Of a stretch of DNA of 64,000 nt, positions 16,757 to 43,879 are shown piece by piece; position 1 is the first letter of the stretch; each line of letters starts with the position of its first letter. Position numbers and translations under genes: made by a program. This DNA comes from a virus (Duplodnaviria; Heunggongvirae; Uroviricota; Caudoviricetes): IMG/VR virus record IMGVR_UViG_3300021963_000024. One strand, written 5' to 3'. The notes beneath the pieces are model-generated. The model ran no database searches and was not told the DNA's origin. It was given only the letters and a program-made list of their open reading frames with translations.

Positions 16757-17299
16757 TTAGTTTTTATAATATAATTCAGGCCATTCCACTATTATATGAA
16801 TACCACCTTGCTCATATGCTTCAGTATATATTTTATAAATATCTTCTATTTTTTTTAATTTATGAACTTTTGTAAATTGAAGAATTGATTGGAATTCATC
16901 GGTATAATCGTTTCTATGCTGAATACCTGGATCCAATGGGTCTTTACTACCAACACCGACTCTAACAATAACATTGACCTTTTTACCGGTCATATGTTCA
17001 AATTTATCAGCATGATTAATTAACTGATTTGCTGCGGAAACTAAAAAATCCCATCTTGGATAAAATGATATTACCGTTTTACCTGTTATTGCAAGTCCTA
17101 AACTCATTCCCATTTGTGTTTCTTCCATAACAGGAACTTCAATCATTTTTTCCTTTGGAACATCATTCAATGTAGTTGACATTGGATTTCCGGCATAAAC
17201 TATTTGCTGTCCAATGAAAACCGTATCCTCTTTTTCAGAAAGAAAATTCATTGCTTTTGTCAATTCATCCTTATATGGTGAAAATTCTGGCTTACTCAT
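16757..17299 (-). CDS. TPP-dependent enzyme, E1-beta/transketolase pyrimidine-binding domain only
   Basis: VFIGQQIVYAG, EVPVMEETQMGMSLGLAITG, DPGIQH; 180 aa, no transketolase C-terminal domain. Confidence 0.8.
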   Translation of the reverse strand: MSKPEFSPYKDELTKAMNFLSEKEDTVFIGQQIVYAGNPMSTTLNDVPKEKMIEVPVMEETQMGMSLGLAITGKTVISFYPRWDFLVSAANQLINHADKFEHMTGKKVNVIVRVGVGSKDPLDPGIQHRNDYTDEFQSILQFTKVHKLKKIEDIYKIYTEAYEQGGIHIIVEWPELYYKN

Positions 17300-18291
17300 T
17301 ATGGTTTTGAATTTGGATTATACAAATGTTTATTTGCTTTATACCATTCGATAGTTTCTTTTAAAGCAGTTTTTAAATCTCTCTTAGGTTTCCAACCTGC
17401 AGCGTTTATTTTCTTAGATGACATTAATCTAACCGGAATCATAGGTGCTTTGTTATTCACATATTCAACTGGATTATTGTTGTTATCTGCTTCTTTAATC
17501 CAACTTAATACTTCGTTTACACTAAATCCTTCTCCATAACAAACATTAAATATATCATACTTGTCATTATTTTCTGCAACAAAGATAAAACCATCTGCCA
17601 TATCTTCTACATGCAACAAATCTCTAACTTCCGTTCCATCACCCCACACTGGAATTGGATTTAAGCCATCTGCTACTTTTCTGATGTTTGCAGGAGTAAC
17701 ATGACATTTTTCATAATCAAATTTGTCGTTTGGTCCGAATGCATTTGAAGGTCTAACAATCAAACATTGCATTGGGTTATGAATTTGATTTGAGAAGAAA
17801 TGACAAAGTAATTCACCATATCTTTTCATATTACCAACTGCTCCATAAATTGGAAATGTAGGTGTTGCATGAACATTTATATCTTCTGTGCACCAATCAC
17901 TACCCATATCAGGATAAGAAGTATTAGATGAAATGAATAAGAATTTACTTACACTATTTCTCCAACTTTGTTCCATTAAATTTACATTCATTTCCACATT
18001 TGGAGTAACATGTAATAGTGGATTTTCTTTCGTATCCAATGCGTTTGATGTGTTTGCTGCGCAGTGGAATACTACATTTACATCTTTAGAAACTTCTTTA
18101 CAAAAATCCGCATCTTGTAAATTTCCTTTGTAAAATTCAACTTCCGATGTTCCTTCGAAATCGTTTTTTAAATCTCTACTATAAGATGTTGCTCTTAGGT
18201 TTCTATATCCTTTTTCCCATAATAATCTCAATAGGTGTGAGCCGATAAAACCACTTGCTCCTGTAACTAAAATCTTGTCCGTTTTATTCAT
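17299..18291 (-). CDS. NAD(P)-dependent NDP-sugar epimerase/reductase (GDP-fucose synthase-like SDR)
   Basis: TGASGFIG, RPSNAFGPNDKFD, HVTPANIRK, VWGDGTEVRDLLHVED. Confidence 0.85.
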   Translation of the reverse strand: MNKTDKILVTGASGFIGSHLLRLLWEKGYRNLRATSYSRDLKNDFEGTSEVEFYKGNLQDADFCKEVSKDVNVVFHCAANTSNALDTKENPLLHVTPNVEMNVNLMEQSWRNSVSKFLFISSNTSYPDMGSDWCTEDINVHATPTFPIYGAVGNMKRYGELLCHFFSNQIHNPMQCLIVRPSNAFGPNDKFDYEKCHVTPANIRKVADGLNPIPVWGDGTEVRDLLHVEDMADGFIFVAENNDKYDIFNVCYGEGFSVNEVLSWIKEADNNNNPVEYVNNKAPMIPVRLMSSKKINAAGWKPKRDLKTALKETIEWYKANKHLYNPNSKP

Positions 18292-18295
18292 AAAT

Positions 18296-19333
18296 TTATT
18301 TTAAAATATCCCAATTTAATACCACATCATTAACAAATTTTTTAGTTAGTATAGATGATGTGTGCCCATACCAACTTCTTTCTAAATATTTTTTTTGTTC
18401 GTCTAAATCCATTCCATTCATTTCTCTCCACAATACTTTTGGTAAATCACTATCCATATTGTAATCAAAATTTCTAATTGACCATTCAATTAGACCACCA
18501 AACAAATGTAAGGAATTTTCTTCAAAAAACCAAAAATATTTTTTGAAATCTATTTTATCGGCATATGATTTTACATATGCATTTTCAAATTGTAATTCTT
18601 TTTGTTCCCAAGTATTACAAATATCTTTATTTTCTATAATACATTCGTATACGGATTTTTCCTTTGGTGTATGATAATATGGTGGTGTTCTTCCTTCACC
18701 TAAATATTTTTTACTAAAATTATTATTCATACAAAAAAACTTAATTTTTGTAATTCCTTTATTGTGAAGAAAATCTAAAAGCATGTTCATATATTCAAAC
18801 CATTCAAAATATCTTTCGTTATATGTCATTACTTTATCTAACCATTCAAATGTAACCGGGTCTATATTAATTGGATTATTTGTAGGATTAAATCCACCTG
18901 TTAGGTGAAAATACCCCTGCTGATACGGTGATACTTTATCTTTACCGTTTATCAGATAATCTGTGGTGTGAGCCCAACTTTCATTATACTTTTGATATCT
19001 TAATGCAGGATTTACACTATCGTATTTTTCGGGAGTAATAAAAAAAGAATTTCTTGTCAATGTTGTCCATTGTGCAATTACTGATATATCTTCCGGATTA
19101 ATTCCTTCTTTTAATAAATCCGTAACTTTATAAATTATAGAACGAACAATACTTTTATTATCATGTGTTAGTGCACCATAGTTGTGTAAAACATGAGTCT
19201 TTTGTAAATTATATTGTAACCAATTTGCCCATGTCCAATCTTCTATTGGGTCATTTTCCCATCTCCTTTCATCTCCTATATTAATTCTAAAATTATTTGT
19301 AAATGAACAACCCGATACTACTATATGTTTCAT
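18296..19333 (-). CDS. SGNH-like hydrolase/acyltransferase
   Basis: VSGCSFT nucleophile block, QWTTLTR, C-terminal GHTS. Confidence 0.5.
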   Translation of the reverse strand: MKHIVVSGCSFTNNFRINIGDERRWENDPIEDWTWANWLQYNLQKTHVLHNYGALTHDNKSIVRSIIYKVTDLLKEGINPEDISVIAQWTTLTRNSFFITPEKYDSVNPALRYQKYNESWAHTTDYLINGKDKVSPYQQGYFHLTGGFNPTNNPINIDPVTFEWLDKVMTYNERYFEWFEYMNMLLDFLHNKGITKIKFFCMNNNFSKKYLGEGRTPPYYHTPKEKSVYECIIENKDICNTWEQKELQFENAYVKSYADKIDFKKYFWFFEENSLHLFGGLIEWSIRNFDYNMDSDLPKVLWREMNGMDLDEQKKYLERSWYGHTSSILTKKFVNDVVLNWDILK

Positions 19334-20013
19334 AACATTTTTTTTATTTTATCTTCTAAATAATTTGCCCAATTCTCATGTCCAATTTTATCAGGATGGT
19401 CATTATTTTTTGTATTTGTGTATCCACCAAAAGTATCTTCTAATATTTTATTAAAATAAAAATTAAAAGGTTCTTTACAAGAATCCCAACCAAAAAAATG
19501 AATGTGTTTATATCCATTATGTTCAAGATATGTGTATAAAGAATTTATATAATTTTCAGTTGTTGTTATTTGATATTCCTCATGCAATGCTTTAAGAATA
19601 TATTCATTATAAAAATCCTTATACTCTTTTTTTATTTCTTCATTATCACTTTCTAAATTTTGATTAACATACTGGCCTACACAATTTTTTGATAAACTAT
19701 CCGCTGTTCCGGTTTGTAATGCATTGAAACAATTGGGTGCAACTAAATATAAATTTCTATTATTATATTGTATTGGAATTTCTTTTCTTATATAATGTGT
19801 CCATTGAATTAAAATAATGTCATCTTTTTTTATATGAGTTTTTAAATGTGCAAAAACATTTCTAAAAATATAATCATTAGATTGTCCCGCAGACCCCATA
19901 TTATAAACATTTAATCCCAACTTTTTACCCAATAATATGGGATATGCTTCTGTTTTATTATTTTGCAACCCAACGCCATCCGTAAAGGAGCAACCAAATG
20001 CATACATTTCCAT
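19330..20013 (-). CDS. SGNH-like hydrolase/acyltransferase
   Basis: FGCSFTDG, NMGSAGQSNDYI, IQWT, NDHP..GH. Confidence 0.6.
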   Translation of the reverse strand: MEMYAFGCSFTDGVGLQNNKTEAYPILLGKKLGLNVYNMGSAGQSNDYIFRNVFAHLKTHIKKDDIILIQWTHYIRKEIPIQYNNRNLYLVAPNCFNALQTGTADSLSKNCVGQYVNQNLESDNEEIKKEYKDFYNEYILKALHEEYQITTTENYINSLYTYLEHNGYKHIHFFGWDSCKEPFNFYFNKILEDTFGGYTNTKNNDHPDKIGHENWANYLEDKIKKML

Positions 20014-21011
20014 TATAATCTACTCTTATATTCTTTAATAGATTTCATAATACCTTCCTTTAATGATGTTTGTGGAAGAATACTATATTGTTTTTGTTTT
20101 TTAGAACCTAAACATCTAATTGGGTCACCATTTGTTTTGGTTTCATCCCATACAATAGTTTTGGTTTCTCCTGTTAATTCTTTATAACATTCTACAATAG
20201 TTTCAATTGTTTCTTTAATAGTTACTGCTTCTGCACATCCAAAGTTGATAATATCACTAACTTCCTTTTTAACTACATCAATTGTAGCTTGTGCAACATC
20301 ATCACCAAATACGAAATCTCTACGAGAAGAACCATTACCCCAACATACCATTTCCTCACCCTCTACATTAAATAATTTCCAAATATTAGAACTAATCACC
20401 GTTGCATCTTGTGCAAAGTTATCATTAATACCATATATGTTTGAAGGTCTAATTACTGTCCAATTTTTCCAACCATATTGAACTCTTAAAGAATCCAATG
20501 TTAATTCACCCATTCTTTTTGTCCAACCTGGATGCCAATCTAAACGAGATGGAGTTGATGCCCAAGTTTCTTCCTGATTCCAAGTATCTTCTTCATTCAT
20601 TACTTCTGCCGGCTTATATACACCAACCGATGAAAGATATACAAACCAATCTACCTTTGCATCAAATGATGCTTTAATCATATTAGTATTGAACATCAAC
20701 ATTGGGAATAGGTAATCTGCTGGTTGCGTTGATGAACGAGCCGGTGAACCTTTTACACCCGCGATATGTAATACAATATCAATCTTATCCATAGTGAATA
20801 AATCTTCACAATGAGAAAGATAAGTTAAATCCGTTTTAATTAATACCAATCTATCAGGATGCTGTCCTTTTAGAAAGTTTAAATTTTCACTAAATCTAAG
20901 GTCAACTGCGTATACTTTTGCAGCACCTTCTTCTAAACATTTTTTAACTGCTGGTAATCCGACCAATCCGTTTGCTCCGGTTACAATAACTTTTTTTCCT
21001 GAGAATTCCAT
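20013..21011 (-). CDS. NAD(P)-dependent NDP-sugar epimerase/reductase (GDP-fucose synthase-like SDR)
   Basis: TGANGLVG, RPSNIYGINDNF, CWGNGSSRRDFVFGDD. Confidence 0.85.
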   Translation of the reverse strand: MEFSGKKVIVTGANGLVGLPAVKKCLEEGAAKVYAVDLRFSENLNFLKGQHPDRLVLIKTDLTYLSHCEDLFTMDKIDIVLHIAGVKGSPARSSTQPADYLFPMLMFNTNMIKASFDAKVDWFVYLSSVGVYKPAEVMNEEDTWNQEETWASTPSRLDWHPGWTKRMGELTLDSLRVQYGWKNWTVIRPSNIYGINDNFAQDATVISSNIWKLFNVEGEEMVCWGNGSSRRDFVFGDDVAQATIDVVKKEVSDIINFGCAEAVTIKETIETIVECYKELTGETKTIVWDETKTNGDPIRCLGSKKQKQYSILPQTSLKEGIMKSIKEYKSRL

Positions 21012-22408
21012 AACTTTTCTTTTTCGTAATCTAATTTTATTTTTTGAAATATTTCTTCAAAACATTCGTATTTATCAAATGTATACAAATGATTCTGATT
21101 ATGTATAAGTATTTCTTTTATAGAATAATACCAATTGTGTATTTCTTCTATTGATTTATTTTTTAATTTTTCAATTTCAATTTCAATTTTTTTAATTCTC
21201 TTTTTTCTTTCAATTTCTAAATCATAACTCTCATCAATAAATGGTTCAAATGTTTTGAATCCTAATCTTTTTAATTCTGCCAATGTTCCATAATCACCTA
21301 ATACAATAAATGGTTGTAAATTAGATAATGGTTTAAATATTTTTTCCGATAAGAATACATTTCTACCAAAAAAAGTTTCGGTAACTAAATTTATATATGT
21401 ATCCGTATACCATTCTTTCATATTGTTTTTTGCTCCGAAATGTGCTTTTTGTCTTTCTTCCAAATTTTGTGTATCCAATTCATATGGTATCATTGATTCT
21501 ATCGTATCAATATATTCTTTATTTGGATTATCTATTAAAGATGTAACATTTCTCAATAATTCATCCTTTGATAATTTTTGTATAAAAGAAAATAACCCTT
21601 CCGATAGTAAATCATATTTTATTGAAAAATAGGCCATTGCAACTCTATGTGGTTTAGACATTGTTTTATTATTACACAAAAATTTGTAAGGTCTTATCGC
21701 ATTTTCAGATAAATCTTCTATTCTTGCCAAATCACAAATATATCCTAAATCTCCCTTTTCTGGAAATTTTTTCATCATATCCGCATATCCCTTTATAAAT
21801 AAATGGCCATTATAAATTTTTACTTTACTATGTGGATGTTTTTGATAATATTCTGTAAATTCGCTACCACCTAACACAATAATATTAGACCCATTTATAC
21901 CCAATTTGTTCATTTCTAATTCAAACTCCCTTATATTGTAATCATCATATAATGGGTCGTGTATTATGTTTACTAAAATTTTTACTTTTCCCGATTTAAA
22001 ATATTCAATCATTTCCGTTGGAATAATATCTTTTAGTTTCCAAACATAATTTACATCATTTAAAAAAAATTTATTCTCTGCGGTTAGATAACTTAATGTC
22101 GCTTTTATTTCTAAAGGATAAATGTATGTATATTCATCATCTTCTATCTGTGTAATGTTGATAATATTATTTTCAAAATTTCTTGCAAAATAATTTAATA
22201 ATTCCGAATGGTCAAATGGAATTCCTTTTTGTTCTTGTTCATATTGTAACATTCTATAATAATCTATATTCAAATTATTTCTATGAACATATTGAATAAA
22301 TTGTCTTATTGCAGGATGAATTCCATTACCAAATGGTTTTCTTTCACCACTCTGTATATACCAATCGGTATAAACTAATTTAAATTTAGAACCATGCATA
22401 TGTTCCAT
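20981..22408 (-). CDS. putative glycosyltransferase (GT10-like C-terminal motif)
   Basis: YINLVTETFF..FLSEKIFKPLSNLQPFIVLG resembles the GT10 FENS..TEK..PIVxG motif. Confidence 0.45.
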   Translation of the reverse strand: MEHMHGSKFKLVYTDWYIQSGERKPFGNGIHPAIRQFIQYVHRNNLNIDYYRMLQYEQEQKGIPFDHSELLNYFARNFENNIINITQIEDDEYTYIYPLEIKATLSYLTAENKFFLNDVNYVWKLKDIIPTEMIEYFKSGKVKILVNIIHDPLYDDYNIREFELEMNKLGINGSNIIVLGGSEFTEYYQKHPHSKVKIYNGHLFIKGYADMMKKFPEKGDLGYICDLARIEDLSENAIRPYKFLCNNKTMSKPHRVAMAYFSIKYDLLSEGLFSFIQKLSKDELLRNVTSLIDNPNKEYIDTIESMIPYELDTQNLEERQKAHFGAKNNMKEWYTDTYINLVTETFFGRNVFLSEKIFKPLSNLQPFIVLGDYGTLAELKRLGFKTFEPFIDESYDLEIERKKRIKKIEIEIEKLKNKSIEEIHNWYYSIKEILIHNQNHLYTFDKYECFEEIFQKIKLDYEKEKLWNSQEKKLL

Positions 22409-22409
22409 A

Positions 22410-23393
22410 TTATATTCTATTAACTTTTTTAATACTATCTCTTACATAATAATTATCGTGCAAAAAAATATCAAATAATATATCATTTTTTATATAACCA
22501 GTCTTACACATTAAATCAAAAATATAATCAGGGTATTCATAAGATATTTCGTAATCCATTTGTAAATCAAATACATCTTTTATAAATTGTAATACTCCAT
22601 TTACAATTTTTTCTTTTTCATCAAAAAATAAAACTTCGATATTTTCATTTACAAATTTATTATCAGTAATATCAATATATGTGCCAATTTTATCAGTAAA
22701 AACGCTTTCAAAAAATATTATGTTATCTTTAAAATTCGCTTTATAAAATTCACAAAAACCTTTTGTATCTTTTAATGGTAAATTTCCTTTGTATGTTATA
22801 TATCTACCTTTAAGCTCTACTGCAAATGTGTTTTGAATATTGTATTGTGTTGTTCCCTGAAATCCACTATCAACCATAATTACATTTTTAGAATTACCTA
22901 TAACATCCTTTACATACTTTCCATACTCACTTCTAACTCTTTTCGCGTTGTTCAAAATATCATTAACATATTTACTTAAATTTGGAATTTCTTTAGATGT
23001 ATCAATATCAAAATTATCCTCAATATCTATTCCAAATCTATTCTTCAATAAACCATTTAAATTGCCAGAATATCGGTGTAGTTTAAATGTATCGTATATA
23101 TCTTGTTCCGTTTTTAAAGATGCAATAGTTGATAATTTTCTTGATGTTTTAAAATATTCGTATTTTGGTAAATTATACTTTTCTTTAAACAATTCATATA
23201 TTTTTATAAAAAAATATCCTTCTCTGGAATTAAATAAAACCAAATCACAACCATCTAATTCTTTTCGCAACCAATCAAAAAAATTAAAAACGATTGGTCC
23301 AAAAAAATTATAACCCAAATCTTCAAAAGAGTTTGGGTTTTGTAAATCTCTGTGTTGTAACAATAATTTTATATGTTTATCAATCAATTCCAT
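22410..23393 (-). CDS. glycan-cluster protein resembling the C-terminal part of predicted HAD-superfamily hydrolases
   Basis: LFNSREGYF, TSRK, MVDSGFQGTTQ motifs. Confidence 0.45.
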   Translation of the reverse strand: MELIDKHIKLLLQHRDLQNPNSFEDLGYNFFGPIVFNFFDWLRKELDGCDLVLFNSREGYFFIKIYELFKEKYNLPKYEYFKTSRKLSTIASLKTEQDIYDTFKLHRYSGNLNGLLKNRFGIDIEDNFDIDTSKEIPNLSKYVNDILNNAKRVRSEYGKYVKDVIGNSKNVIMVDSGFQGTTQYNIQNTFAVELKGRYITYKGNLPLKDTKGFCEFYKANFKDNIIFFESVFTDKIGTYIDITDNKFVNENIEVLFFDEKEKIVNGVLQFIKDVFDLQMDYEISYEYPDYIFDLMCKTGYIKNDILFDIFLHDNYYVRDSIKKVNRI

Positions 23394-23820
23394 AAACTTT
23401 AAATGCCGGTATTCCCAAACTATTCCACATTTGTATTATTTCTTCCTCATCATCATATGCACAAAATACATCTGATTTTATTAGAGTTTTATATGCTTTC
23501 TCTTTATAAACAGGAGCTTTTAAAAAATGTGAACTGCGATTTCTCATAATCAATTGGTCATATTCTACACCATATTTTTCCAACCACTCTTCCGTAACCT
23601 TTTCAACCGATTCTGGTCTTCCTGTTAAAACAATAACTTCGAATCCATCTTTCTTATATTTTTTTGCCAAATCAATCATTGGCCAGTTTGGTTTATCTTT
23701 TTCTATAAGGTCTATTCTATGTGCAATATCCCAATCTATTTTTCCATCAGGTTTTGTTGCTAATCTAAATCTTTCATTACTAATACAAAGTGTATTATCT
23801 ATATCAATTATTACTTTCAT
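23380..23820 (-). CDS. HAD phosphatase (T4 PseT/Pnk 3'-phosphatase-domain-like)
   Basis: IIDIDNTL, VLTGRPE, LIMR, AYDDEEE. Confidence 0.8.
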   Translation of the reverse strand: MKVIIDIDNTLCISNERFRLATKPDGKIDWDIAHRIDLIEKDKPNWPMIDLAKKYKKDGFEVIVLTGRPESVEKVTEEWLEKYGVEYDQLIMRNRSSHFLKAPVYKEKAYKTLIKSDVFCAYDDEEEIIQMWNSLGIPAFKVYGID

Positions 23821-25022
23821 AAATCTCTAACTCCTTGCTTTTCGTAACTTACAGGTATTTTAATTCCGGTGTTGCAACCATTGCAATTATCACAAAATGT
23901 AATATATCCTAAGTCAGTATAACCCAAATCAAACTTTAATAGTTCTTCGTTTGAAATTATTTTTATATCAACATAATCATTATCGTTTAATGGAAATAAG
24001 TTTGTTCTAACTGCCGATGTGTTTAGGTGACAATAGTAAAACTTACCATCATTTAATCCTCTAAATGGTGCTGTACATGAATCAAAATGATTTATCAATT
24101 GTTCCGTTGTTCTACCACCCTTTATTCTTAAATCTCCGAAATCATACCATTCAATTTCATTTCTAACATAATGATTGATTCCAACTTCTTTATATTTTTC
24201 TAATACCTTTGTGACTTTCTTTTTTATATTTTCCAGCTTATCGGTATAATCACTTACACTCAAAATAACATCATTTACTTTTAATAAATTAAGCATGCTA
24301 TCTTTTGGTAAAATTGTTCCGTTGGTTGTAATTATTAATTTATCAATTTTATGAATGTAGTTTGTAATAACATATCTAACTACATCTTCAATATTTGGAT
24401 ATAAAAATGGCTCTCCACCTACCAAATGAAACACACTAACATAATCCACTTTATTAAAAAATGAATCAATATCGTTCTTTATTGTATCAACTTCTCTATG
24501 AATTGGTGTTTCAAAATGTGGCATGAACATATTACAATGAGAACAATTTAATGTGCATTTTTCAGTCACCAATACATCCGTTTGAAATATATGAGTTTTG
24601 TTTTTATGTTTGAAAGGCCAAATGGAAGCAATGTGTTTATACCAAGTCCACTTTATATTTTTTTCATCCAATAACTTTTTGTATTTGTTTTTAAATACAT
24701 CGGTTGTAATAATAATTTGTTGATTTAGATTGAAATCATATTCATCCATATTAACCAACTTTAAATTATTTCTATTTGATTGAATTACTTTTGATTCGTG
24801 ATATGCCGAACTTATTTCTTTTATGTTATCCAAAGTATCTTTATCTTTTATAGAATGGTCAACTATGTATTTTATTTTCAATACACCTTCTCCCATTAAT
24901 ATATCCATACTACGAATAAATTGGACACATTCCTTACTTGCACCAAATAAAACATATTCGGTTTCTAAATCCCAATCTTTTGTGAATTTATCAAAATTAT
25001 GTATATCGTTTTGGTATAGCAT
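23817..25022 (-). CDS. radical SAM protein with N-terminal Rossmann-like extension
   Basis: CTLNCSHC, LVGGEPFL, ITTNG, C-terminal FCDNCNGC. Confidence 0.85.
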   Translation of the reverse strand: MLYQNDIHNFDKFTKDWDLETEYVLFGASKECVQFIRSMDILMGEGVLKIKYIVDHSIKDKDTLDNIKEISSAYHESKVIQSNRNNLKLVNMDEYDFNLNQQIIITTDVFKNKYKKLLDEKNIKWTWYKHIASIWPFKHKNKTHIFQTDVLVTEKCTLNCSHCNMFMPHFETPIHREVDTIKNDIDSFFNKVDYVSVFHLVGGEPFLYPNIEDVVRYVITNYIHKIDKLIITTNGTILPKDSMLNLLKVNDVILSVSDYTDKLENIKKKVTKVLEKYKEVGINHYVRNEIEWYDFGDLRIKGGRTTEQLINHFDSCTAPFRGLNDGKFYYCHLNTSAVRTNLFPLNDNDYVDIKIISNEELLKFDLGYTDLGYITFCDNCNGCNTGIKIPVSYEKQGVRDL

Positions 25023-25023
25023 A

Positions 25024-26198: not shown

Positions 26199-26199
26199 A

Positions 26200-27171: not shown

Positions 27172-27172
27172 A

Positions 27173-29334: not shown

Positions 29335-29338
29335 AATT

Positions 29339-32228: not shown

Positions 32229-32231
32229 TTA

Positions 32232-32531
32232 TTAAACTTTTTCTATATCTTTTTTTGGTCTAACTTTTCTTGGTGGTGGTGGAGTTTGTTGTTCTTCCTG
32301 TGTTGTTGGAACTTCCCCACTAAAATTTGCTTTAGCCATTGTATGCCATTCATACAAATACCATGCCAATCTTTCACCCCATTCTTTCTTATCAATTTCT
32401 TCGAACCAAATAGTAAGTGCATCCAAAGAATTTGCTATCTTTTCCAATGCTTTAACTTTTCTTGTTTCCAATACAACTGATTCTAAATTTTGTTCTGGAG
32501 TTTCTACTTCTTGTAACTTAATTTTTGCCAT
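32232..32531 (-). CDS. hypothetical protein
   Basis: 99 aa, in frame with the operon packing. Confidence 0.55.
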   Translation of the reverse strand: MAKIKLQEVETPEQNLESVVLETRKVKALEKIANSLDALTIWFEEIDKKEWGERLAWYLYEWHTMAKANFSGEVPTTQEEQQTPPPPRKVRPKKDIEKV

Positions 32532-32533
32532 TT

Positions 32534-33982: not shown

Positions 33983-33990
33983 ATAACCTT

Positions 33991-34857: not shown

Positions 34858-34859
34858 TT

Positions 34860-36499: not shown

Positions 36500-37830
36500 A
36501 TTATATTTGTTTTTAAAAGTAATTTATTAATATTATTCATTATATTACAATAATGATTAATTAAATTTTCCTTATTATTTTTTATTCTATTATAATTTTT
36601 TATATATAACTTTTGCAATTCTTTAGTATTTAATTTTTTTAAAGAAGTTACAATCATATCTATTTGCTCCAATTCATTTTTATATTCTATTCCATTTAAA
36701 TCAAATTCATCTAAAAATAGGTCTATTCCTATTTTTTTAAAAGAATCATAAACTTTATTAGAACCGTAAATCATACAAAAATTTTCAGCTATAATTGGTT
36801 TTATTGATTTTTCTGTAAAAAATCCGTATTGTAAATCAAAAATGCAATGTGTTTCACCAACTACATCAATCCATGCATCATTATATTCTTCATCTTTAAA
36901 ATAATATTTCAAATGGTCATATAAAAAATCAGCATTGTCTGATGTGATGTTTATTTTGTCAATAATTTTTAAAAATTCATTAAAAAATTCTTTATTAAAA
37001 TATTTCTTATGATTAATACTATGTTTTTTGGTGTTATCCGTATAAATAAAATTATCATTTACGGCTTGTTTATATTCTTCTAAAAATTTAATATTAACAT
37101 TATTTTTTCCATGTTGTAATATATCATTTTTATATGCCTCTAATAAAAATTTTATTCTATGGTATCTTGGTTTTTGACAAGTTTGTGAATAAACATTAGT
37201 TCTATATAATTTATTATTTATGTTAAAATTTTCAAACATTTTTTTAAAATCAACCAAATATTCACTCCATCCATATTTTGTATGTGGAAATAAAGTTGTT
37301 ATCAATTGTCCTTCTCCTAATATATGAAATAAAGAATAAAATGAATCATAATAAAAATTATTTTCCTTTGCAAACAATTCATAATCTGTTAATTTAATAT
37401 GATTAAATTTAAAATTATACAAAAACAAATCGGATTCATCTTCATAATTTACTGCTTCTAAAAATGCAAAATTAAAAAAAACTGTAATGTTTTTTTCTAC
37501 ATAACGATTTTCTAATTTTAAAAAATCTTCTTTATTATTTTTTAATAATGGATAGTATAATTCATACCAAAGTTTTCTATCACATATTATTGTTAAATCA
37601 TCAATCGGATTTGTATAATATGAATCCATATTTATCAAATCATTTGTATTTTGTATTTTGGAATACACATTCATATCCAAATGATGGTTTATTGTAATAG
37701 TATTATCATTTGATTTTATTTTTAATACAGATAATTTATTATCCATTACCTTATTCAAATCCAAAAGTTTAGCATCTGGAAATAAACAATGTAATTCTGC
37801 TGTGGTGCAAAGTAAATTTATATATTTCAT
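36496..37830 (-). CDS. putative glycosyltransferase, paralog of 20981..22408
   Basis: QKPRYHRI and WIDVVGET..FFTEKSIKP versus SKPHRVA and YINLVTET..FLSEKIFKP. Confidence 0.45.
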   Translation of the reverse strand: MKYINLLCTTAELHCLFPDAKLLDLNKVMDNKLSVLKIKSNDNTITINHHLDMNVYSKIQNTNDLINMDSYYTNPIDDLTIICDRKLWYELYYPLLKNNKEDFLKLENRYVEKNITVFFNFAFLEAVNYEDESDLFLYNFKFNHIKLTDYELFAKENNFYYDSFYSLFHILGEGQLITTLFPHTKYGWSEYLVDFKKMFENFNINNKLYRTNVYSQTCQKPRYHRIKFLLEAYKNDILQHGKNNVNIKFLEEYKQAVNDNFIYTDNTKKHSINHKKYFNKEFFNEFLKIIDKINITSDNADFLYDHLKYYFKDEEYNDAWIDVVGETHCIFDLQYGFFTEKSIKPIIAENFCMIYGSNKVYDSFKKIGIDLFLDEFDLNGIEYKNELEQIDMIVTSLKKLNTKELQKLYIKNYNRIKNNKENLINHYCNIMNNINKLLLKTNII

Positions 37831-38801
37831 ATAACCTTTAATATTTCAGTAATCCATTTTTCTTTGTTTGTATATTTTTCAAGACCTTTTTTTAATCTAT
37901 CAAATTGTTTTTTATTTTTTTCAAAATCATCTTCAAGTATACGAAGATATTGATAATGAAATTGTTCTTTATTCATTGCTCTATAACGATACTTAATTCC
38001 CTTCATCCAATTCGTATCTAATATTGGTAGTTTACCATTATCAATTGCATCGAAGATTGCATAACCAAATGGTTCTTTAGTATATGCTCCATGAAATATT
38101 TGAAAATTCTTTTCAAAAAATTTGTTGTGAAATTTATAATCAAATTCTATAAATTGATGAACTTCCGAATTTATTTTAGATACATCCAATAATCGTTTGT
38201 AATCATATTTGTTTGAAAATATGAAAGCGGGTATTTTATCTAAATAATGTGCATTCTTTCTCGTTTCACATCTTGCAGCATAACCAATTCTATTACTAAC
38301 TATTGGAACAAATGGTTTATTGTGTTTCCATTCATAATAGTTTGTTATTGTGATTGTATTTGGAAAATAAGTATGAATTGTATCACTCTCATAACCAATC
38401 CAAACTATGTTTTTAGAATTATCTAAAAGGTCTTTTTGCCAATGCCAATCTAATCTTGTCATTAGGTTTTCGTATTCATCATTCAATCCAACTACATCTG
38501 GTATGAAAGCATGAACAAATGTTGTGTGTATTTTATGAAAGTAATTTTGAAGTAATTCCCACTTTTTATATGGATGATGAAGGATAACAATTTTTTCACA
38601 TTCATCTAATATTTTTTTTACTTCTTCTTCGTTTTCGTATGTATAAATTGCACCTTCTTCTTTTATTAAAGGTCTACCAACCACAATTATTTTGTAATCT
38701 TCTTTTATTAAAGGGAGTATATTTTCTACAAAGTTATTGCACCAAATATCAGAACCCCCTATAACATTTTTTCCGTAACCCGTTGTTATGAATACTATCA
38801 T
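37827..38801 (-). CDS. GT-B fold glycosyltransferase (GT4-like)
   Basis: N-terminal GGSDIW, RIGYAARCETRKN, EPFGYAIFDAIDNGKLPI (Ex7E-like motif). Confidence 0.7.
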   Translation of the reverse strand: MIVFITTGYGKNVIGGSDIWCNNFVENILPLIKEDYKIIVVGRPLIKEEGAIYTYENEEEVKKILDECEKIVILHHPYKKWELLQNYFHKIHTTFVHAFIPDVVGLNDEYENLMTRLDWHWQKDLLDNSKNIVWIGYESDTIHTYFPNTITITNYYEWKHNKPFVPIVSNRIGYAARCETRKNAHYLDKIPAFIFSNKYDYKRLLDVSKINSEVHQFIEFDYKFHNKFFEKNFQIFHGAYTKEPFGYAIFDAIDNGKLPILDTNWMKGIKYRYRAMNKEQFHYQYLRILEDDFEKNKKQFDRLKKGLEKYTNKEKWITEILKVI

Positions 38802-41800
38802 ATACTACCACTTATTCTTTGTATTAATTCATTTTTAGCCTGTAATAAAAAATCGTTTTTATATTTTTCCGTTCTATAATTTTTATTTCTATCATATAGT
38901 GGTGAATCTATTATATCTGGATCATTTCTTTCGGCAACAACTAACCAACTAACCACATCGGTTGATTGAGTATTTTCACATTGTATATTTATAGAACCAC
39001 TAATAATATTTCCTTTAATTCTATCAAATCCTGATTCGTTTTGTAAAAATAATTGTGCATTTCTTGATAGATTATAAAAAGTTCCTTCCGTCATTTTTGA
39101 GGCAGAATCTATTGAACACATTGCTTCTCCGTTTAACAATTCAACGGTCCCTCTATACATCAAATCTGCTCTAGGTCCTTCTATTGCTGTATGATATAAC
39201 CATTTGTTTTCATGTATTGGATGTTGTATTTTAAAGTTTTTATATTTTCCAGTTAAACCTTCCGATATTGATAATGAACCAATTATACCCGATTTTCCTT
39301 TTACTTCAAAAAAGTTTATGTTCGCAGCTGCCTCCGAATCAAGACCCGCTGCTTTTGCAGAAACATCAGCCGCATTCATATAGTTTTTAAAACCCTGATA
39401 AACCTGTATACCGCCCGGAGAGAATATCGAATAACCATTACCAACTCTACCAAATTTTACAATAATATCTCCTGCCGGCCTTCTAATTCTTATAAAACTA
39501 TTTGCGGTTCCATCCACATATCCATAATAATATTGTATGATTTCAACTCTATACCAAACGGCTGTCCCCACCGTGTTAATACCCCCACCTCCTGGTGCTT
39601 TAATTGTTCCACCGTATTTATTTTGAACATCGGTATATACTTGACCACTATATTCATAATATTGCGCTGAAGCTAACAATATTAATTGTTCTCCACCAAA
39701 TCCAAAAGAAGTATTTACATTTGTTTCATTTTGTGCATCTACTGCCGATGGGAATTGTCTAACTCTTAAATAACAATCCCAATATCCTGTAATAGATTCC
39801 TGATAATCACATTGGCCTGAAATAATATTTGATATGCTTGGAAACTGGTCCGCTTCCACAAATATCTCTTCAGATGCGTATTGTAAACCAATTATACCAT
39901 ACCCATATCCATAGTTGATATGCCCATATGCAGCCATATCGTATCCCGTATTACCATCTTGATATGGCGGATTATCCGACCCATATACGGTTGCAAGTAT
40001 TTGTGAACTATTAGAATACCCCAACGATCCCGTATCACTAATATTAATTGCAGGAATGGTTAAATCGGCATTAATTCTCAATCTATCCAAATAATCCACA
40101 CTATTTGTTTCTCTAATAACAATAGCTGGTTTGTTTCCTGAAGTTGTTAATCTTAAACTAAAACTACCCGTTGATTTTGATAAAGAATCGGAACTTAGTG
40201 TCCACCCTGCAATATTTCCTGTGTTTGTTGCTGTTATATTCGTTGCAGTAATATCTCCTTTTATAGCCAATGCATCGGATGCGGCGGTCCATGTTAAATA
40301 ACCCGCACTACCTTGTAAACCAAAGTTACCCGAATTATCCATATAAGATTTCCAAGAACTACCATTATAATACCCCAAATAATTTGCACCCAAATATAAT
40401 CCAGAGCCCGCAGGTGCTGCGTTTGCCAATGCAAATCCACTTCCACCGAAATTGTAGTTTGATGGATTTACCCAAGAACCAGATTGCGAACCTATTGCTG
40501 TTAATTGTGATTGTGCAGTATCTGCTTTTGTATTTGCAGTATTTGCGGTAGATTGTGCCGTTGAAGCATTTGATACCGCTGTATTTGCAGTTGATTGTGC
40601 AGTTGATACCGAACTTGCTAATGAAGATGTTGCACTATTTAAATTTGTTATTGCACTGGCAGCACTACCTCCTGTAATATTAACGGCACCATTTACTGTC
40701 AATGTTGTTCCATCCCAAGTTAATTTATCTTTTAAAGAAAATTGACCCGAATTATCTACATAAAAAGATGTATTGGTATTATTATATGTTCCCGTTCCAA
40801 TATACATTTTTTTATTTACACCATCCAATGTTATTGCTCCACCACTTCCAACTACAAATAAACCTGAAATATATCCACCATTACCTGCGATTACAGGCGA
40901 TGAAATAGATGTAGCAGTTATAAATGTTCCACTACCACCTGTCCAGTTACCATTAGCTAATAAATTAATAGAGGCGGATGCATCCGTTTTGGCCTGATTT
41001 ATTGCCGCAGTCTGTGCAGCAGATGCTGCAGCTGAACCTGATGCTACAGCGTTAGTTCCTATACTTGTTGCAAATAATTGTGCAGCCGTTTGTGCAGCTG
41101 CCGCAGATACTGAACCAGATGTCACCGCATTTGCAGCATACCCAGCTGCAGTCGAATTTGCAGAACTTAATGTGGATGATAACGAAGATGTTAAAGCTGC
41201 CGATGTTGCAGCATTACCACCCGTAACAGTTATTGCACCATTGATTGTTAAAGTGCTACCATTCCAAGTTAATGAATCGGTTCCTGTTCCACTTAAATAG
41301 AAGTTACCATTATTGGCCATATAGGTTTTCCAATCACTTCCATTATAATATCCTAAATAAGAACTTCCCAAATAAAGACCGGCAGTAGAACCAACTAATA
41401 CGGTTGGTGGTTTTGCAATTAAACCAGTTGCTGTTGTAAATGTTGTAGATGCAACGGATGTAGATAAAGAAGCGGTTGCGGAATTTATGGCACCACTTAC
41501 TGCATTTAATGAAGATGATAAAGCAGTAGTTGTTGCGGCATTACCACCTTGAATATTTATATCTCCGGCGATTTGTAATCTACCTTGTGTCGAACTCCAT
41601 GCTAAAAACCCACCATTAACCGCAGATGATGTTAAATAAAAATCACCCTGATTATCCATATAAGTTTTCCAAACACCACCACCATAAAATCCTAAATGAG
41701 TATCTCCCGTATAAAGACCAGATACAGATGCGGTTGGTGGTCTTTTTACCTTACCATTTTCATCCGTAAAAATAAATTTATCCAAATATGCAGATGCCGA

Positions 41801-43879
41801 ATAAACGGTATATAATGATTGCGAATTTGCCGTAGATAATGATGAACTTATAGATGAACTAACATTTGCTATCGAACCACTAACACTTCCACTTAATGTA
41901 TATATTGAACCACTAATTGAACCACTTACTTGACCAATAGTCCCACTCACTGATGCACTCACACTACCTATTGTTCCACTTACCGAACTACTAACTTGTC
42001 CGATAGTCCCACTTACAGATGCACTCACACTGCCTATTGTTCCACTAACACTTCCACTCAAACTAAATATCGAACCACTAACCGAACTACTTACATTTGT
42101 AATTGTTGTATACGCAGATGCACTATTTACTGTGACTGTTCCACTAATAGATTGTGAAACGGAAGATATTGTGTTTGTTAAATCTAAAGATGCCGATGCA
42201 ATCGAAGAACTTAACTCAACCGATGATGAAGCCAATTGAGTTAAAACAATAACTGTATTTGTTCCACCTGAAAATTGTTTTTCTTTTAATATCGTTATTG
42301 GAACGAAATTATTATTTACATCATAAAATTCAAATTTAAATTCAAATATTTCATTTGGAACGGTCGTTGGAACAGATGTCAAAAATGCAACAGAGTCGGG
42401 TGAAAATGCTGTTTCTGCTGATACAACTAAACTTAAATCTGATAGATGCCATTCACCTTGTGATGCGCTAAAATATAGTGATGCCGATGGTTCCGTTACA
42501 TCCAATTTAAATTGAACTATTTGATTTTCAAATTTTTTAGTCGGTGATATACCGGTTAAAGTTCCTATTTTTAATTCACCAATAGATGAACTATTTGTTG
42601 TAGTTGAACCACTTATGTATATATCTAAATCCGATGCAGTTGATGAACTATAAAACGCATCAAATTGTAATTCATAAACGGTTTTGGATGTTAAATCTAA
42701 AGATGATGTATATAAAAACTTACCACCACCATTTAATTTAACTCCATTTACTAATCTTGAATTTGATAAAGTGGATGTTAAAGTTTCCGTAGTATTCCAA
42801 TATTTTGATAAAATTTCAGAATCAAAAATACCAGTAGATTGAACTGCTCTACTACTACCTTCCAATGTAATCAATAACTCTGTCGATTCTAATAAAATAT
42901 CTTGCACCAATTCATAATCAGAAATACTACCTTTAGAACGTCTAAATACTTTTACTCTTTTTACATCACCCGCAAATGTTTCCAATTGAGATAATTTTAT
43001 ATTTGCATATGATGATGTAAATTCGGATTGCGTTCTATCTGAACCGGATAAATATGTAACAGAATATGGTGTTGTCATAACCGTCTGAACAATATCGGAT
43101 TCTATTAAGGGAGGATTAATTTTAGCAGTATCAGCTGATATAATTTCTAATATTTCTGGAGTATAAGTTGGATAGGATGAAAAACTCATAGTTTCGCCCA
43201 ACATATTATTTTGAAAAGTTTGTCCATTTAGTAATGTAGCAAAATATTCCAAATCATCTGGTAAAATATATTGGTCACCAAATTTACCAAAAGTATTATT
43301 TACATAATAATCCGTTGGATATAAAGATGTATTACCACCTTGTGCTATTCTTGTTTCGGTGATAGTAAATACAGGTTTTAAAATTTCGGTTATCTCTACC
43401 TGCGGTCTTTTGTAAAAACGAATTTTTGTATTATTTTGTAAAAATGGATTTACATTTATTTCTTTCTGCCATCTTACATTGTAAGTATCTCTATATTGTA
43501 ACGGAACGGGTTGCTTTATACCATTTGCATCAACATATTCCGAAACTTCACCCAATATTGTAATTGTACATGGACCAAATGCCGTATCTGGATAAATGTA
43601 AACCGCTATAACTTTTGAAGTTCCCTCATAATATTCGGGTATACCCTCACCTGGTTCGTGATAAATTATATTACCTTGAGAATCTTTGATTTCTATTTTT
43701 ACAATAGTATCAGCAACTAAAAATTCAGAACCTTGAATTAAGAATGCATTTTTACCTCCTGTAAAGGTATCGGGTAACTCTGTAATTTTAAAATACTTAC
43801 TATTGGTATCCGTATCTTGAATGAGAACGGAATACTTTTCTAAATTTTCAGGAAATAATGTTTTCTTTAGAACCGCCAT
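38798..43879 (-). CDS. large tail fibre/tail-associated structural protein (1693 aa)
   Basis: Ser/Gly/Ala/Thr-rich shaft, repeated beta modules, C-terminal KNFKIQHP..LYHTAIEGPRADLMYRG typical of fibre C-terminal chaperone-like domains. Confidence 0.8.
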   Translation of the reverse strand: MAVLKKTLFPENLEKYSVLIQDTDTNSKYFKITELPDTFTGGKNAFLIQGSEFLVADTIVKIEIKDSQGNIIYHEPGEGIPEYYEGTSKVIAVYIYPDTAFGPCTITILGEVSEYVDANGIKQPVPLQYRDTYNVRWQKEINVNPFLQNNTKIRFYKRPQVEITEILKPVFTITETRIAQGGNTSLYPTDYYVNNTFGKFGDQYILPDDLEYFATLLNGQTFQNNMLGETMSFSSYPTYTPEILEIISADTAKINPPLIESDIVQTVMTTPYSVTYLSGSDRTQSEFTSSYANIKLSQLETFAGDVKRVKVFRRSKGSISDYELVQDILLESTELLITLEGSSRAVQSTGIFDSEILSKYWNTTETLTSTLSNSRLVNGVKLNGGGKFLYTSSLDLTSKTVYELQFDAFYSSSTASDLDIYISGSTTTNSSSIGELKIGTLTGISPTKKFENQIVQFKLDVTEPSASLYFSASQGEWHLSDLSLVVSAETAFSPDSVAFLTSVPTTVPNEIFEFKFEFYDVNNNFVPITILKEKQFSGGTNTVIVLTQLASSSVELSSSIASASLDLTNTISSVSQSISGTVTVNSASAYTTITNVSSSVSGSIFSLSGSVSGTIGSVSASVSGTIGQVSSSVSGTIGSVSASVSGTIGQVSGSISGSIYTLSGSVSGSIANVSSSISSSLSTANSQSLYTVYSASAYLDKFIFTDENGKVKRPPTASVSGLYTGDTHLGFYGGGVWKTYMDNQGDFYLTSSAVNGGFLAWSSTQGRLQIAGDINIQGGNAATTTALSSSLNAVSGAINSATASLSTSVASTTFTTATGLIAKPPTVLVGSTAGLYLGSSYLGYYNGSDWKTYMANNGNFYLSGTGTDSLTWNGSTLTINGAITVTGGNAATSAALTSSLSSTLSSANSTAAGYAANAVTSGSVSAAAAQTAAQLFATSIGTNAVASGSAAASAAQTAAINQAKTDASASINLLANGNWTGGSGTFITATSISSPVIAGNGGYISGLFVVGSGGAITLDGVNKKMYIGTGTYNNTNTSFYVDNSGQFSLKDKLTWDGTTLTVNGAVNITGGSAASAITNLNSATSSLASSVSTAQSTANTAVSNASTAQSTANTANTKADTAQSQLTAIGSQSGSWVNPSNYNFGGSGFALANAAPAGSGLYLGANYLGYYNGSSWKSYMDNSGNFGLQGSAGYLTWTAASDALAIKGDITATNITATNTGNIAGWTLSSDSLSKSTGSFSLRLTTSGNKPAIVIRETNSVDYLDRLRINADLTIPAINISDTGSLGYSNSSQILATVYGSDNPPYQDGNTGYDMAAYGHINYGYGYGIIGLQYASEEIFVEADQFPSISNIISGQCDYQESITGYWDCYLRVRQFPSAVDAQNETNVNTSFGFGGEQLILLASAQYYEYSGQVYTDVQNKYGGTIKAPGGGGINTVGTAVWYRVEIIQYYYGYVDGTANSFIRIRRPAGDIIVKFGRVGNGYSIFSPGGIQVYQGFKNYMNAADVSAKAAGLDSEAAANINFFEVKGKSGIIGSLSISEGLTGKYKNFKIQHPIHENKWLYHTAIEGPRADLMYRGTVELLNGEAMCSIDSASKMTEGTFYNLSRNAQLFLQNESGFDRIKGNIISGSINIQCENTQSTDVVSWLVVAERNDPDIIDSPLYDRNKNYRTEKYKNDFLLQAKNELIQRISGSI
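41870..42100 (-). repeat. 66-bp (22-aa; 11-aa subunit) imperfect tandem repeat in the fibre gene
   Basis: gtcccact.ac.gatgcactcacact.cctattgttccact.ac at about 41940 and 42006; encodes SVSGTIGSVSASVSGTIGQVS. Confidence 0.85.

Follow-up and report, generated by a model that had tools for sequence, protein, structure and literature searches.

The window analysed here is a 64,000-nt stretch of the IMG/VR virus record IMGVR_UViG_3300021963_000024, to which positions refer unless stated otherwise; it is the reverse strand of nucleotides 134620-198619 of a 238,219-bp viral contig, rated complete by CheckV. It carries a gene for a putative fibre of 1693 aa (P0001), directly followed on the same strand by a block of 23 genes (g1 to g23) rich in glycosyltransferase-like, nucleotide-sugar and sugar-tailoring proteins, and it is the relation between this fibre and this block that concerns us. 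The genome has a GC content of approximately 30%, and almost all of its genes lie on one strand. Its terminase is 54% identical to that of Flavobacterium phage immuto and 52% to that of Microcystis phage Mel-JY01, T4-like cyanophages being more distant. The phage is an uncultured, freshwater, T4-distant jumbo myovirus. A megablast of 25 kb against cultured phages returned a 143-bp capsid match only.

Along the direction of transcription, the window begins with a baseplate wedge protein gene (61834-63864) and genes for large proteins, including one of 1786 aa. Then follow an endonuclease, a primase, an SbcD-SbcC fusion and a 2-oxoglutarate (2OG)-Fe(II) oxygenase. Next come P0001 and the 23 genes of the block, behind which are encoded P0002, a multi-domain protein of 1294 aa, and then terminase, portal, prohead protease and major capsid protein (PHROGs annotation). 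The block sits within the structural half of the genome. The preliminary description of this DNA, made from the sequence alone, had placed it between tail and head genes: head and packaging genes are found downstream, but the tail and baseplate genes (at 49.7-64 kb) are not directly upstream, being separated from the fibre by the endonuclease, primase, SbcD-SbcC and 2OG oxygenase genes and by a 61-aa gene on the opposite strand. All 23 open reading frames (16757-38801) are on the minus strand, as is that of the fibre (38798-43879), and the junctions across the block range from -46 to +8 nt; with g4 starting at its first ATG (35618), the -46 junction turns into another 4-nt overlap. The fibre stop and the start of g1 overlap in the tetranucleotide ATGA. 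The same-strand, tightly packed arrangement and the overlap between the fibre stop and the first transferase, both noticed in the preliminary description, therefore hold. The fibre gene, the transferase-like genes and the small or lectin-like genes that go with them are as follows.

38798-43879, minus strand: P0001, fibre of 1693 aa, with a conserved N-terminus, a Ser repeat, repeated beta-rich modules, an Ala-rich stretch and a C-terminal domain
37827-38801, minus strand: g1, GT-B (GT4-like) glycosyltransferase, the start of which overlaps the fibre stop
36496-37830, minus strand: g2, member of a virus-only family in common with g18, with a weak GT10 (fucosyltransferase)-like lead
33991-34857, minus strand: g5, GT2-like (GT-A) protein; Glyco_tranf_2_4 at 27.0 bits (cut-off 27.5)
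32534-33982, minus strand: g6, GT7 plus LamG, the most divergent paralogue; Glyco_transf_7N 55.7, Laminin_G_3 50.1 and Glyco_transf_7C 29.8 bits
32232-32531, minus strand: g7, 99-aa protein between GT7 paralogues, without family match; 42-78% identity in most loci
30798-32228, minus strand: g8, GT7 plus LamG; 7N 74.3, 7C 65.8 and LamG 49.0 bits
29339-30796, minus strand: g9, GT7 plus LamG; 7C 68.3, 7N 63.2 and LamG 51.5 bits
27173-27922, minus strand: g11, stand-alone LamG-like domain; hhalign 98.9%, E = 2e-17 against the LamG region of the GT7-LamG alignment
20981-22408, minus strand: g18, virus-only family with g2; atlas score 0.79 to GT10 clusters, its nearest atlas clusters all being viral and without names

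The AlphaFold2 (AF2) model of g1 (pLDDT 91.2) matches the GT4 enzymes GlgM, PimA, BshA and tll1591 in Foldseek, with probability 1.0 and TM-scores of 0.6-0.68. The protein has the two Rossmann-like domains, the R/K pair and the C-terminal motif of a GT-B/GT4-like enzyme: in the alignment, R177, K182, E243, F245, G246, G256 and P259 are invariant, and the motif reads E243-P-F-G. Searches of Pfam and NCBIfam gave no sequence-family match for g1, and a g1 profile run against PDB sequences likewise came back empty. The three paralogues g6, g8 and g9 pass both GT7 models of Pfam and hence belong to GT7; in their alignment, D72 and D74 (DxD) are invariant and an E-D-D-D block nearly so, and the LamG domain is placed between the catalytic core and conserved C-terminal residues. 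For g2, no match was found in Pfam, NCBIfam or PHROG, its GT10-like lead coming from an atlas feature score of 0.80 and structural TM-scores of 0.44/0.61 to a viral GT10 cluster. PHROGs offers no family for most of the cluster proteins.

The second group of genes is predicted to act on nucleoside diphosphate (NDP)-sugars, and comprises three short-chain dehydrogenases/reductases (SDRs), a cupin and two genes related to thiamine pyrophosphate (TPP) enzymes.

26200-27171, minus strand: g12, SDR, like Cj1427-type NDP-heptose C4-dehydrogenases
25653-26198, minus strand: g13, cupin 3,5-epimerase (dTDP_sugar_isom), nearest to GDP-4-keto-heptose epimerases
25024-25653, minus strand: g14, TPP-binding E1-alpha-like half; E1_dh 61.5 bits, pyruvate dehydrogenase E1 alpha E = 6e-10
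20013-21011, minus strand: g19, GDP-fucose-synthase-like SDR, candidate C4 reductase; Epimerase 114 bits
17299-18291, minus strand: g22, SDR NDP-sugar epimerase/reductase; Epimerase 156 bits
16757-17299, minus strand: g23, E1-beta/transketolase pyrimidine-binding half; Transket_pyr 22.0 bits, below the cut-off of 27

Over its full length (residues 2-310), g12 matches PDB entry 6vo6 (phmmer, 359 bits, E = 2e-106), which we take to be Cj1427; the molecule name given by the depositor agrees. The best PDB matches of g13 (8dco, 8db5, 7m14, 7an4 and 7ang, at 122-124 bits, vs. 84 bits for classical RmlC) bear the names of GDP-4-keto-heptose 3,5- and 3-epimerases and correspond to DdahB/MlghB (PMC7949155). 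By these matches, g12 and g13 qualify as a Cj1427-type C4 dehydrogenase and a GDP-4-keto-heptose C3/C5 epimerase, respectively. The likeness of g19 to its best PDB matches, GDP-L-fucose synthases (approximately 66 bits) plus the MlghC-type 7anh, is only moderate, and the matches of g22 are scattered over UDP-Glc 4-epimerases, GDP-fucose synthases and GDP-mannose 3,5-epimerase. Together, g12, g13 and g19 seem to mirror the dehydrogenase-epimerase-reductase route to modified GDP-heptoses (PMC10680097; for the role of Cj1427, see also PMC7949155), and would reproduce the trio of the C. jejuni capsular heptose pathway (Cj1427/MlghA, MlghB/Cj1430 and MlghC/Cj1428). Unlike that pathway, the phage system lacks GDP-heptose-making genes, capsule export genes and transmembrane proteins, and its product is proposed to be destined for protein, not for a capsule.

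The E1-alpha-like g14 and the Transket_pyr protein g23 are encoded nine genes apart and would form the two halves of one split TPP enzyme; two-carbon branching is a plausible role for it, because a 4-keto sugar is the usual acceptor in such TPP-dependent reactions. The genome does not encode an NTP_transferase-family sugar-1-phosphate nucleotidyltransferase, and therefore the starting nucleotide-sugar would be host-derived. We considered P0002 as a heptose-1-phosphate nucleotidyltransferase and rejected it, its sole PDB relatives being NMN adenylyltransferases (E ~5e-4). The remaining cluster genes encode candidate tailoring enzymes, including two of the radical S-adenosylmethionine (SAM) type.

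35615-36499, minus strand: g3, possible SGNH-type esterase/acyltransferase, by an N-terminal G-C-S-F-S block only; no Pfam or NCBIfam family match, and found in some relatives only
34860-35618, minus strand: g4, SAM-dependent methyltransferase; Methyltransf_24, 42.4 bits; probable ATG start at 35618
27919-29334, minus strand: g10, N-terminal-twitch radical SAM protein; NF033640 (N_Twi_rSAM) 353.5 bits, cut-off 170
23817-25022, minus strand: g15, generic radical SAM protein; Radical_SAM 51.6 bits, Fer4_12, no specific NCBIfam match; variable among relatives
23380-23820, minus strand: g16, HAD phosphatase of the PNKP-phosphatase type; HAD_PNKP 63.3 bits
22410-23393, minus strand: g17, HAD-hydrolase-like lead, by an atlas feature score of 0.93 to bacterial "HAD family hydrolase" clusters; no Pfam or NCBIfam match
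19330-20013, minus strand: g20, weak SGNH/GDSL-like hydrolase; Lipase_GDSL 20.4 bits, below the cut-off of 23.6
18296-19333, minus strand: g21, weakly SGNH-like; DUF6071 19.5 bits (sub-threshold), N-terminal G-C-S-F-T block

The enzyme inventory of the preliminary description could be upheld in good part. Among its approximately seven glycosyltransferase-like genes, the three GT7 members and the GT-B enzyme stand, the GT2-like protein scores just under the cut-off and the two GT10-like calls are weak. Of its tailoring set, the methyltransferase, the two radical SAM enzymes and the phosphatase g16 are retained; the SGNH calls are sub-threshold or based on a motif, and g17 is backed by the atlas score only. 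The cupin, the three SDRs and the TPP halves were all recovered, and the label "RfbC + SDR" had to be corrected, since the best matches are Campylobacter GDP-heptose-modifying enzymes.

P0001 has the build of a fibre-type virion protein. Its residues 1547-1674 are approximately 40% identical to tail-fibre and virion structural proteins of cyanophages P-SSM2, S-TIM5 and S-TIM66. The N-terminal 540 aa are kept in 394 IMG/VR stretches, the middle and the C-terminus being swapped among relatives; a conserved anchor with a variable distal part is the usual design of a receptor-binding fibre, and on these grounds P0001 qualifies as a fibre, be it of the tail or of another part of the virion. Directly after the conserved N-terminus comes a Ser-rich segment (residues ~556-690) with an 11-residue period and 47 Ser + Thr per 100 aa. 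The AF2 model of the N-terminal 560 aa is all-beta and poor (pLDDT 65.6, pTM 0.35), and Foldseek matched it only to generic beta-sandwich arrays at TM-scores of at most 0.2. Fibres beside the GT7 cluster are richer in Ser and Thr, with a median of 40 vs. 33 per best 100-aa window (Mann-Whitney p = 8e-6, uncorrected for relatedness).

The coupling of cluster and fibre was assessed from both sides. A search of IMG/VR with g8 yielded 229 relatives, and all window proteins were then compared with 80 loci by tblastn. The core conserved across these 80 loci consists of g4, g5, g7, g8, g9 and g10; many loci also have g1 and the g12-g14 trio, and the remaining cluster genes vary. After dereplication at 90% identity, the GT7-LamG loci represent 44 lineages, eight of which have too little flank, leaving 36 that are assessable. 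In 33 of these 36, a fibre-type gene lies on the same strand within 5.2 kb (often 0-2.5 kb) upstream of the GT7-LamG core, as classified with a fibre library that was built from the same upstream proteins and includes one type (L074) without an independent fibre signature. Co-occurrence of the cluster with a fibre gene across related genomes, a check suggested in the preliminary description, was thus borne out.

The upstream fibres belong to unrelated families: those of loci L029 and L049 combine collagen triple-helix repeats with a Peptidase_S74 chaperone domain, and those of L040, L043, L048 and L072 have the S74 chaperone alone (Pfam), the proteins not being homologous to P0001. The collagen-like repeats beside the GT7 core are proline-free Gly-Thr-Ser or Gly-Ser-Ser triplets, with up to 65 Ser + Thr per 100 residues.

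The GT7-LamG protein itself had no tblastn match in 50,697 phage records. In GTDB, its full-length form was found in only seven contigs of metagenome-assembled genomes (MAGs), all with the same phage cluster; otherwise, bacteria have the catalytic N-domain only. Judging from these searches, viral contigs and phage-like MAG contigs are the only places where the full-length form occurs. The seven GTDB contigs (L176-L182) come from MAGs of Flavobacteriales, Pelagibacterales and others, one of them, 248 kb long, from a Flavobacteriaceae MAG; they are probably phage contigs mis-binned or co-binned with their hosts.

Starting from the fibre, a profile of the P0001 N-terminal domain retrieved 80 loci with 76 complete fibres, representing 46 lineages. 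Behind the P0001-family fibre, 43 of the 46 have a glycosyltransferase cassette of one of three unrelated kinds. The first is the GT7-LamG cluster (18/46). The second (24/46) consists of a 93-aa gene, a gene for a 726-aa fusion of GT1, Methyltransf_24 and GT25-like domains, and one for a 382-aa TibC homologue (E = 2e-47, residues 39-374 aligned with 40-379 of the 406 of TibC). The third (1/46) has a PF11397 "GlcNAc" transferase (130 bits), a GT2 and a 2OG-FeII_Oxy_3 oxygenase resembling prolyl 4-hydroxylases (P4H-like). In two other lineages, the fibre runs straight into the conserved 1294-aa gene, and the last one was left unassigned. PF11397 is the family of the cytoplasmic Skp1 hydroxyproline GlcNAc-transferase, and the pairing of one of its members with a prolyl-hydroxylase-type oxygenase fits a protein target. 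TibC is a cytoplasmic O-heptosyltransferase that hyperglycosylates the adhesins TibA and AIDA-I (PMC4358343). Two of the three alternating cassettes thus contain families known for protein glycosylation, which is most likely the role of the GT7-LamG cluster as well, given its equivalent position. The TibC homologues of the sister cassettes would transfer heptose as well, suggesting a heptose theme shared with g12 and g13.

Some TibC-type cassettes (L145:19773-20522, L166, L168 and L174) have an added PfkB-family sugar kinase; the heptose-7-phosphate kinase domain of HldE is a PfkB member too, which hints at a phage-encoded supply of ADP-heptose. Among the cultured relatives, the fibre N-terminus is encoded by Microcystis phage Mel-JY01, in which a protein of 1226 aa annotated as FkbM methyltransferase comes further on; Flavobacterium phage immuto has neither fibre nor cassette at the equivalent position.

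Elsewhere in the same genome, at approximately 214.9-215.9 kb of the contig, there is a paralogue of g1 (35% identity, E = 3e-48). It starts 4 nt past the second of two tandem 1300-aa fibre genes (L256:2959-11868; contig ~206958-215867), both of which match PHROG tail-fibre families (E down to 8e-33) and have Peptidase_S74; a virion structural protein and the tail sheath are encoded downstream of it. The g1 family therefore occurs twice in the genome, each time directly 3′ of a long fibre gene.

On its 5′ side, the fibre gene faces a small divergent gene across a conserved intergenic region.

43990-44175, plus strand: 61-aa gene with a ribbon-helix-helix (RHH)-like pattern, candidate regulator of the fibre unit
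43880-43989, between the divergent genes: intergenic region of 110 nt, with invariant blocks in an alignment of 11 loci

The 61-aa gene is found at 44-90% identity in 92 related loci, divergent and approximately 100 nt upstream of the fibre start, and keeps this position whatever cassette follows the fibre. It is the sole opposite-strand gene of the region and is better conserved (up to 90%) than the fibre that it faces. Its protein has a marginal match only in PDB (the viral RHH protein AvtR, E = 0.44), and an RHH fold is what we would presume for it. The octamer ATATTTAT is present at 43892-43899, 12 nt ahead of the fibre ATG, and its reverse complement (~43921-43928) faces the 61-aa gene. 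Genome-wide, 48 copies of ATATTTAT lie on the coding strand vs. 14 on the other, and 30 of the 48 are located 4-45 nt upstream of a start codon; the genes so preceded include two tail-fibre genes, the sheath, the gene of the 1786-aa protein and portal-region genes. Another copy (16608-16615) is 4 nt ahead of the 1294-aa gene. Between the fibre and this next gene beyond the block, ATATTTAT occurs twice, deep inside genes (at 43055 and 16842) and at about background density, so that no start-proximal copy exists inside the 23-gene cluster. The intergenic region would fit a dedicated, possibly regulated promoter for the fibre and the cluster.

ATATTTAT resembles the Bacteroidota -7 promoter element TAnnTTTG plus a final A and is likely a phage promoter element. 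The T4 late-promoter motif TATAAATA was rejected as an alternative, as it is under-represented and mostly within genes, the copy before the fibre being the reverse complement of the ATATTTAT that faces the 61-aa gene. Scans for sigma-70 promoters and intrinsic terminators gave counts at or below shuffled expectation and were uninformative.

We propose that P0001 and g1 to g23 together constitute an island for glycosylation of the fibre, which builds a heptose-containing, methylated glycan, a reading to which we assign a probability of roughly 0.6. We infer its acceptor, its sugar, the order and timing of its steps and its benefit as follows. The whole would be transcribed as a single unit from the conserved promoter-like region shared with the divergent RHH-like gene. 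The sugar-nucleotide enzymes would oxidise C4, epimerise C3/C5 and then reduce C4; further modification of the sugars would fall to the split TPP enzyme formed by g14 and g23, both radical SAM enzymes, the methyltransferase and the SGNH-like proteins. The translationally coupled g1 may attach the first sugar to Ser/Thr of the fibre, the likeliest site being the 11-residue Ser-rich repeat (residues 556-690), and the chain would be extended by the GT2-like enzyme, the three GT7 enzymes, which have a lectin-like LamG domain inserted, and both GT10-like proteins. The finished fibre would then join the virion with an O-glycan that could shield it or tune adsorption.

Several points weigh against this proposal. 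All of its support comes from gene neighbourhood and homology, and the model of the P0001 N-terminus, which might have shown where the fibre attaches, is poor and matched nothing specific. A search of the 238-kb genome for a TibC homologue, i.e., for a bacterial autotransporter heptosyltransferase (BAHT), was empty, and none of the families represented in the 23-gene cluster is proven to glycosylate proteins; as for g12 and g13, their closest characterised relatives work on a capsular polysaccharide. Soluble, peripheral glycosyltransferases also occur in O-antigen and capsule pathways, and missing membrane proteins are thus weak evidence. Three lineages hold the GT7 core among genes that match non-structural regions of this genome, and it may simply be that fibre genes and variable accessory genes recombine at one common hot spot. 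In a complete 221-kb relative, the fibre gene is present but a cassette is missing, as is GT7-LamG from the whole genome, so that the modification would be dispensable or optional. Finally, the difference in Ser/Thr content between fibres is confounded by phylogeny.

It is unlikely, in our estimation, that the enzymes serve instead to remodel the host envelope by acting on lipid-linked or nucleotide-sugar intermediates of the host and so altering lipopolysaccharide (LPS), capsule or S-layer glycans during infection, e.g., masking the receptor of the neighbouring fibre, in which case the adjacency would reflect co-variation of receptor-binding and receptor-modifying functions. Soluble glycosyltransferases can act on undecaprenyl-linked acceptors, the Campylobacter homologues of g12 and g13 act in capsule heptose synthesis and the three lineages just mentioned hold the cluster away from fibres; furthermore, comparable gene sets of cyanophages have been read as cell-wall or LPS modification genes (PMC12801897). 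However, the families of initiating phosphoglycosyltransferases, flippases, polymerases, ligases and ABC transporters in Pfam have no member among the 23 proteins, none of which has a transmembrane-like 19-residue window outside a Rossmann core or a signal peptide by hydropathy, and in this respect the block is unlike a Wzx/Wzy- or ABC-dependent O-antigen or capsule locus. Envelope remodelling also leaves aside that the first transferase is translationally coupled to a structural gene, that cassettes in the same position carry the protein-specific TibC homologue or PF11397 with the P4H-like gene, that the g1 paralogue lies within the tail module and that the GT7-LamG form is absent from bacterial genomes proper.

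A still smaller chance is given to the glycosylation of other structural proteins of the virion (capsid, sheath or other fibres) or of several of them, the position behind the fibre then being historical. The island is just upstream of the packaging and head genes, the g1 paralogue beside other fibres points to several targets, the cluster has no fibre next to it in some lineages, and mycobacteriophage glycans are, according to PMC12619734, on capsid and tail-tube subunits. Nevertheless, the adjacency is specific to fibre-type genes of several unrelated families in the 33 of 36 lineages and has its reciprocal in the P0001 family, a pattern that is hard to explain if the fibre is not the substrate.

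Hypermodification of DNA, by which the transferases would glycosylate modified bases against restriction as in T4, RB69 and relatives, is highly improbable: the g1 fold is also like the T4 alpha- and beta-glucosyltransferases at lower Foldseek ranks, a 2OG-Fe(II) oxygenase is encoded two genes upstream and DNA glycosylated with multi-sugar chains is known (PMC13326640), but PF00303 (ThyA-family hydroxymethylase/hydroxylase) is absent from the complete genome in a search that matched 10 of 14 control genomes, the oxygenase is of prolyl-hydroxylase-type families, missing in most relatives and cut off by the opposite-strand gene, and about seven glycosyltransferases with lectin-like domains and a fibre association are unlike known DNA glycosylation clusters.

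The preliminary description read the block as a late operon for a branched, acylated and methylated glycan on the virion, and not on DNA or host LPS. This reading is supported in part, namely in that the cluster is tied to the fibre rather than to DNA or host LPS; the promoter-like motif ahead of the fibre is the one sign of a single, late transcript. The tie between cluster and fibre (33/36 and 43/46 lineages, with TibC and PF11397 in the sister cassettes) agrees with the virion, the lack of a ThyA-type hydroxymethylase in the genome agrees with its exclusion of DNA and the lack of membrane and export proteins in the cluster with that of host LPS.

Glycosylation genes that adjoin the genes of their substrates are familiar from flagellin glycosylation islands, from the GtfA/B loci of serine-rich-repeat adhesins and from the rhamnose/anthrose operons of Bacillus BclA. 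The island in fibre glycosylation proposed here is like them in that a gene for a repetitive Ser/Thr-rich or collagen-like filament is located beside soluble glycosyltransferases and tailoring enzymes, with cassettes that vary by strain; it differs in that those are cellular systems with dedicated export, and, apart from the generic GT4-type fold of g1, nothing homologous to their initiating enzymes turned up. Giant viruses also glycosylate fibrils or capsids, with the gene clusters of Mimivirus and the multi-domain glycosyltransferase/methyltransferase of chlorovirus PBCV-1. They would have in common with the phage virus-encoded, host-independent sugar tailoring and transferases for virion surface fibres, and the glycosyltransferase-methyltransferase-glycosyltransferase fusions of the sister lineages recall the multi-domain chlorovirus enzyme; the giant viruses differ in infecting eukaryotes and in their enzyme set.

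For tailed phages, virion glycosylation has reportedly been described in mycobacteriophages by Freeman et al. in 2023. In the literature searched, mycobacteriophages are the only tailed phages for which virion glycosylation has been measured, and no paper on fibre-coupled glycosyltransferase cassettes was found. According to PMC12619734 and PMC12801897, which cite that study, phage glycosyltransferases there decorate the phage's own structural proteins, as we propose here, and the system consists of some two glycosyltransferase genes, acts on the C-termini of capsid and tail-tube subunits and has measured glycans. In contrast, the present system has 23 genes, including those for sugar synthesis and tailoring, a fibre as the presumed target and a host of a different phylum, and is predicted from its genes.

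Another close parallel is TibC/AAH with TibA/AIDA-I (BAHT; PDB 4rap; PMC4358343), in which a cytoplasmic enzyme uses nucleotide-heptose to hyperglycosylate Ser of an adjacently encoded, long, repetitive, beta-rich surface protein; a TibC homologue stands behind the same fibre family in the 24 sister lineages. Unlike TibC/AAH, this genome has about seven other glycosyltransferase-like genes and a sugar-tailoring pathway in place of a TibC homologue, the likely donor would be GDP-linked and not ADP-linked heptose, and the substrate would be a phage fibre, not an autotransporter. Our system appears to be a variant of phage virion glycosylation that is very large and combines GT7-LamG enzymes with heptose tailoring; its link between cluster and fibre is well founded through the comparison of genomes.

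More tentatively, aquatic T4-distant jumbo phages may have in common a modular fibre glycosylation island, in which a conserved unit of regulator, promoter and fibre is combined with at least three unrelated, exchangeable cassettes (GT7-lectin with heptose tailoring; TibC-type with the glycosyltransferase-methylase fusion; a Skp1-like hydroxyproline GlcNAc pathway) that place lineage-specific glycans on Ser/Thr-rich or collagen-like repeats. Large sets of sugar genes in aquatic phages are usually read as genes for host LPS or cell wall. If our reading is true, many uncultured freshwater and marine jumbo phages would make their own glycoprotein fibres (229 GT7-LamG loci and 394 fibre relatives in IMG/VR), and such "auxiliary metabolic" genes would have to be re-read as genes for structural maturation. 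There would, moreover, be a virus-only form of GT7 enzyme with an inserted lectin-like domain, heptose would be a recurring glycan of phage proteins, and the modular islands would represent previously unrecognised diversity of the phage surface, with effects on adsorption, on host range or on how well the phage withstands proteases and defences of the host.

Around the island, the 2OG oxygenase gene (44172-44897) was rejected as a member of the system, for few relatives carry it and the opposite-strand gene intervenes; although P4H-type by Pfam, it shares no homology with the P4H-like gene in the L092 cassette. Further upstream (44909-48058, minus strand), SbcD (Mre11-like) and SbcC (Rad50-like) are fused in one protein of 1049 aa. 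The gap past g23 (16604-16756, minus strand; 153 nt) contains a 23-codon, Lys/Glu-rich open reading frame and then ATATTTAT ahead of the next gene, and its RNA structure is not significant (z = -1.0). This next gene, encoding P0002 (1294 aa; 12719-16603, minus strand), is kept as the downstream border of the island among relatives. Its product begins with an NMN-adenylyltransferase-like nucleotidyltransferase, followed by a long low-complexity linker, a Gly/Ala-rich hydrophobic stretch, an HExxH motif and, at the C-terminus, a region with a K-x-D-G ligase-like motif.

Among the relatives, L035 (12838-21136), in which the GT7 core is away from a fibre, has four g10-related radical SAM paralogues in a row. 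In some others (L097:16386-20933 and L112:15684-19805), a protein of 1400-1500 aa with a C-terminal pretoxin-HINT-like domain is encoded between the fibre and the GT7 genes.

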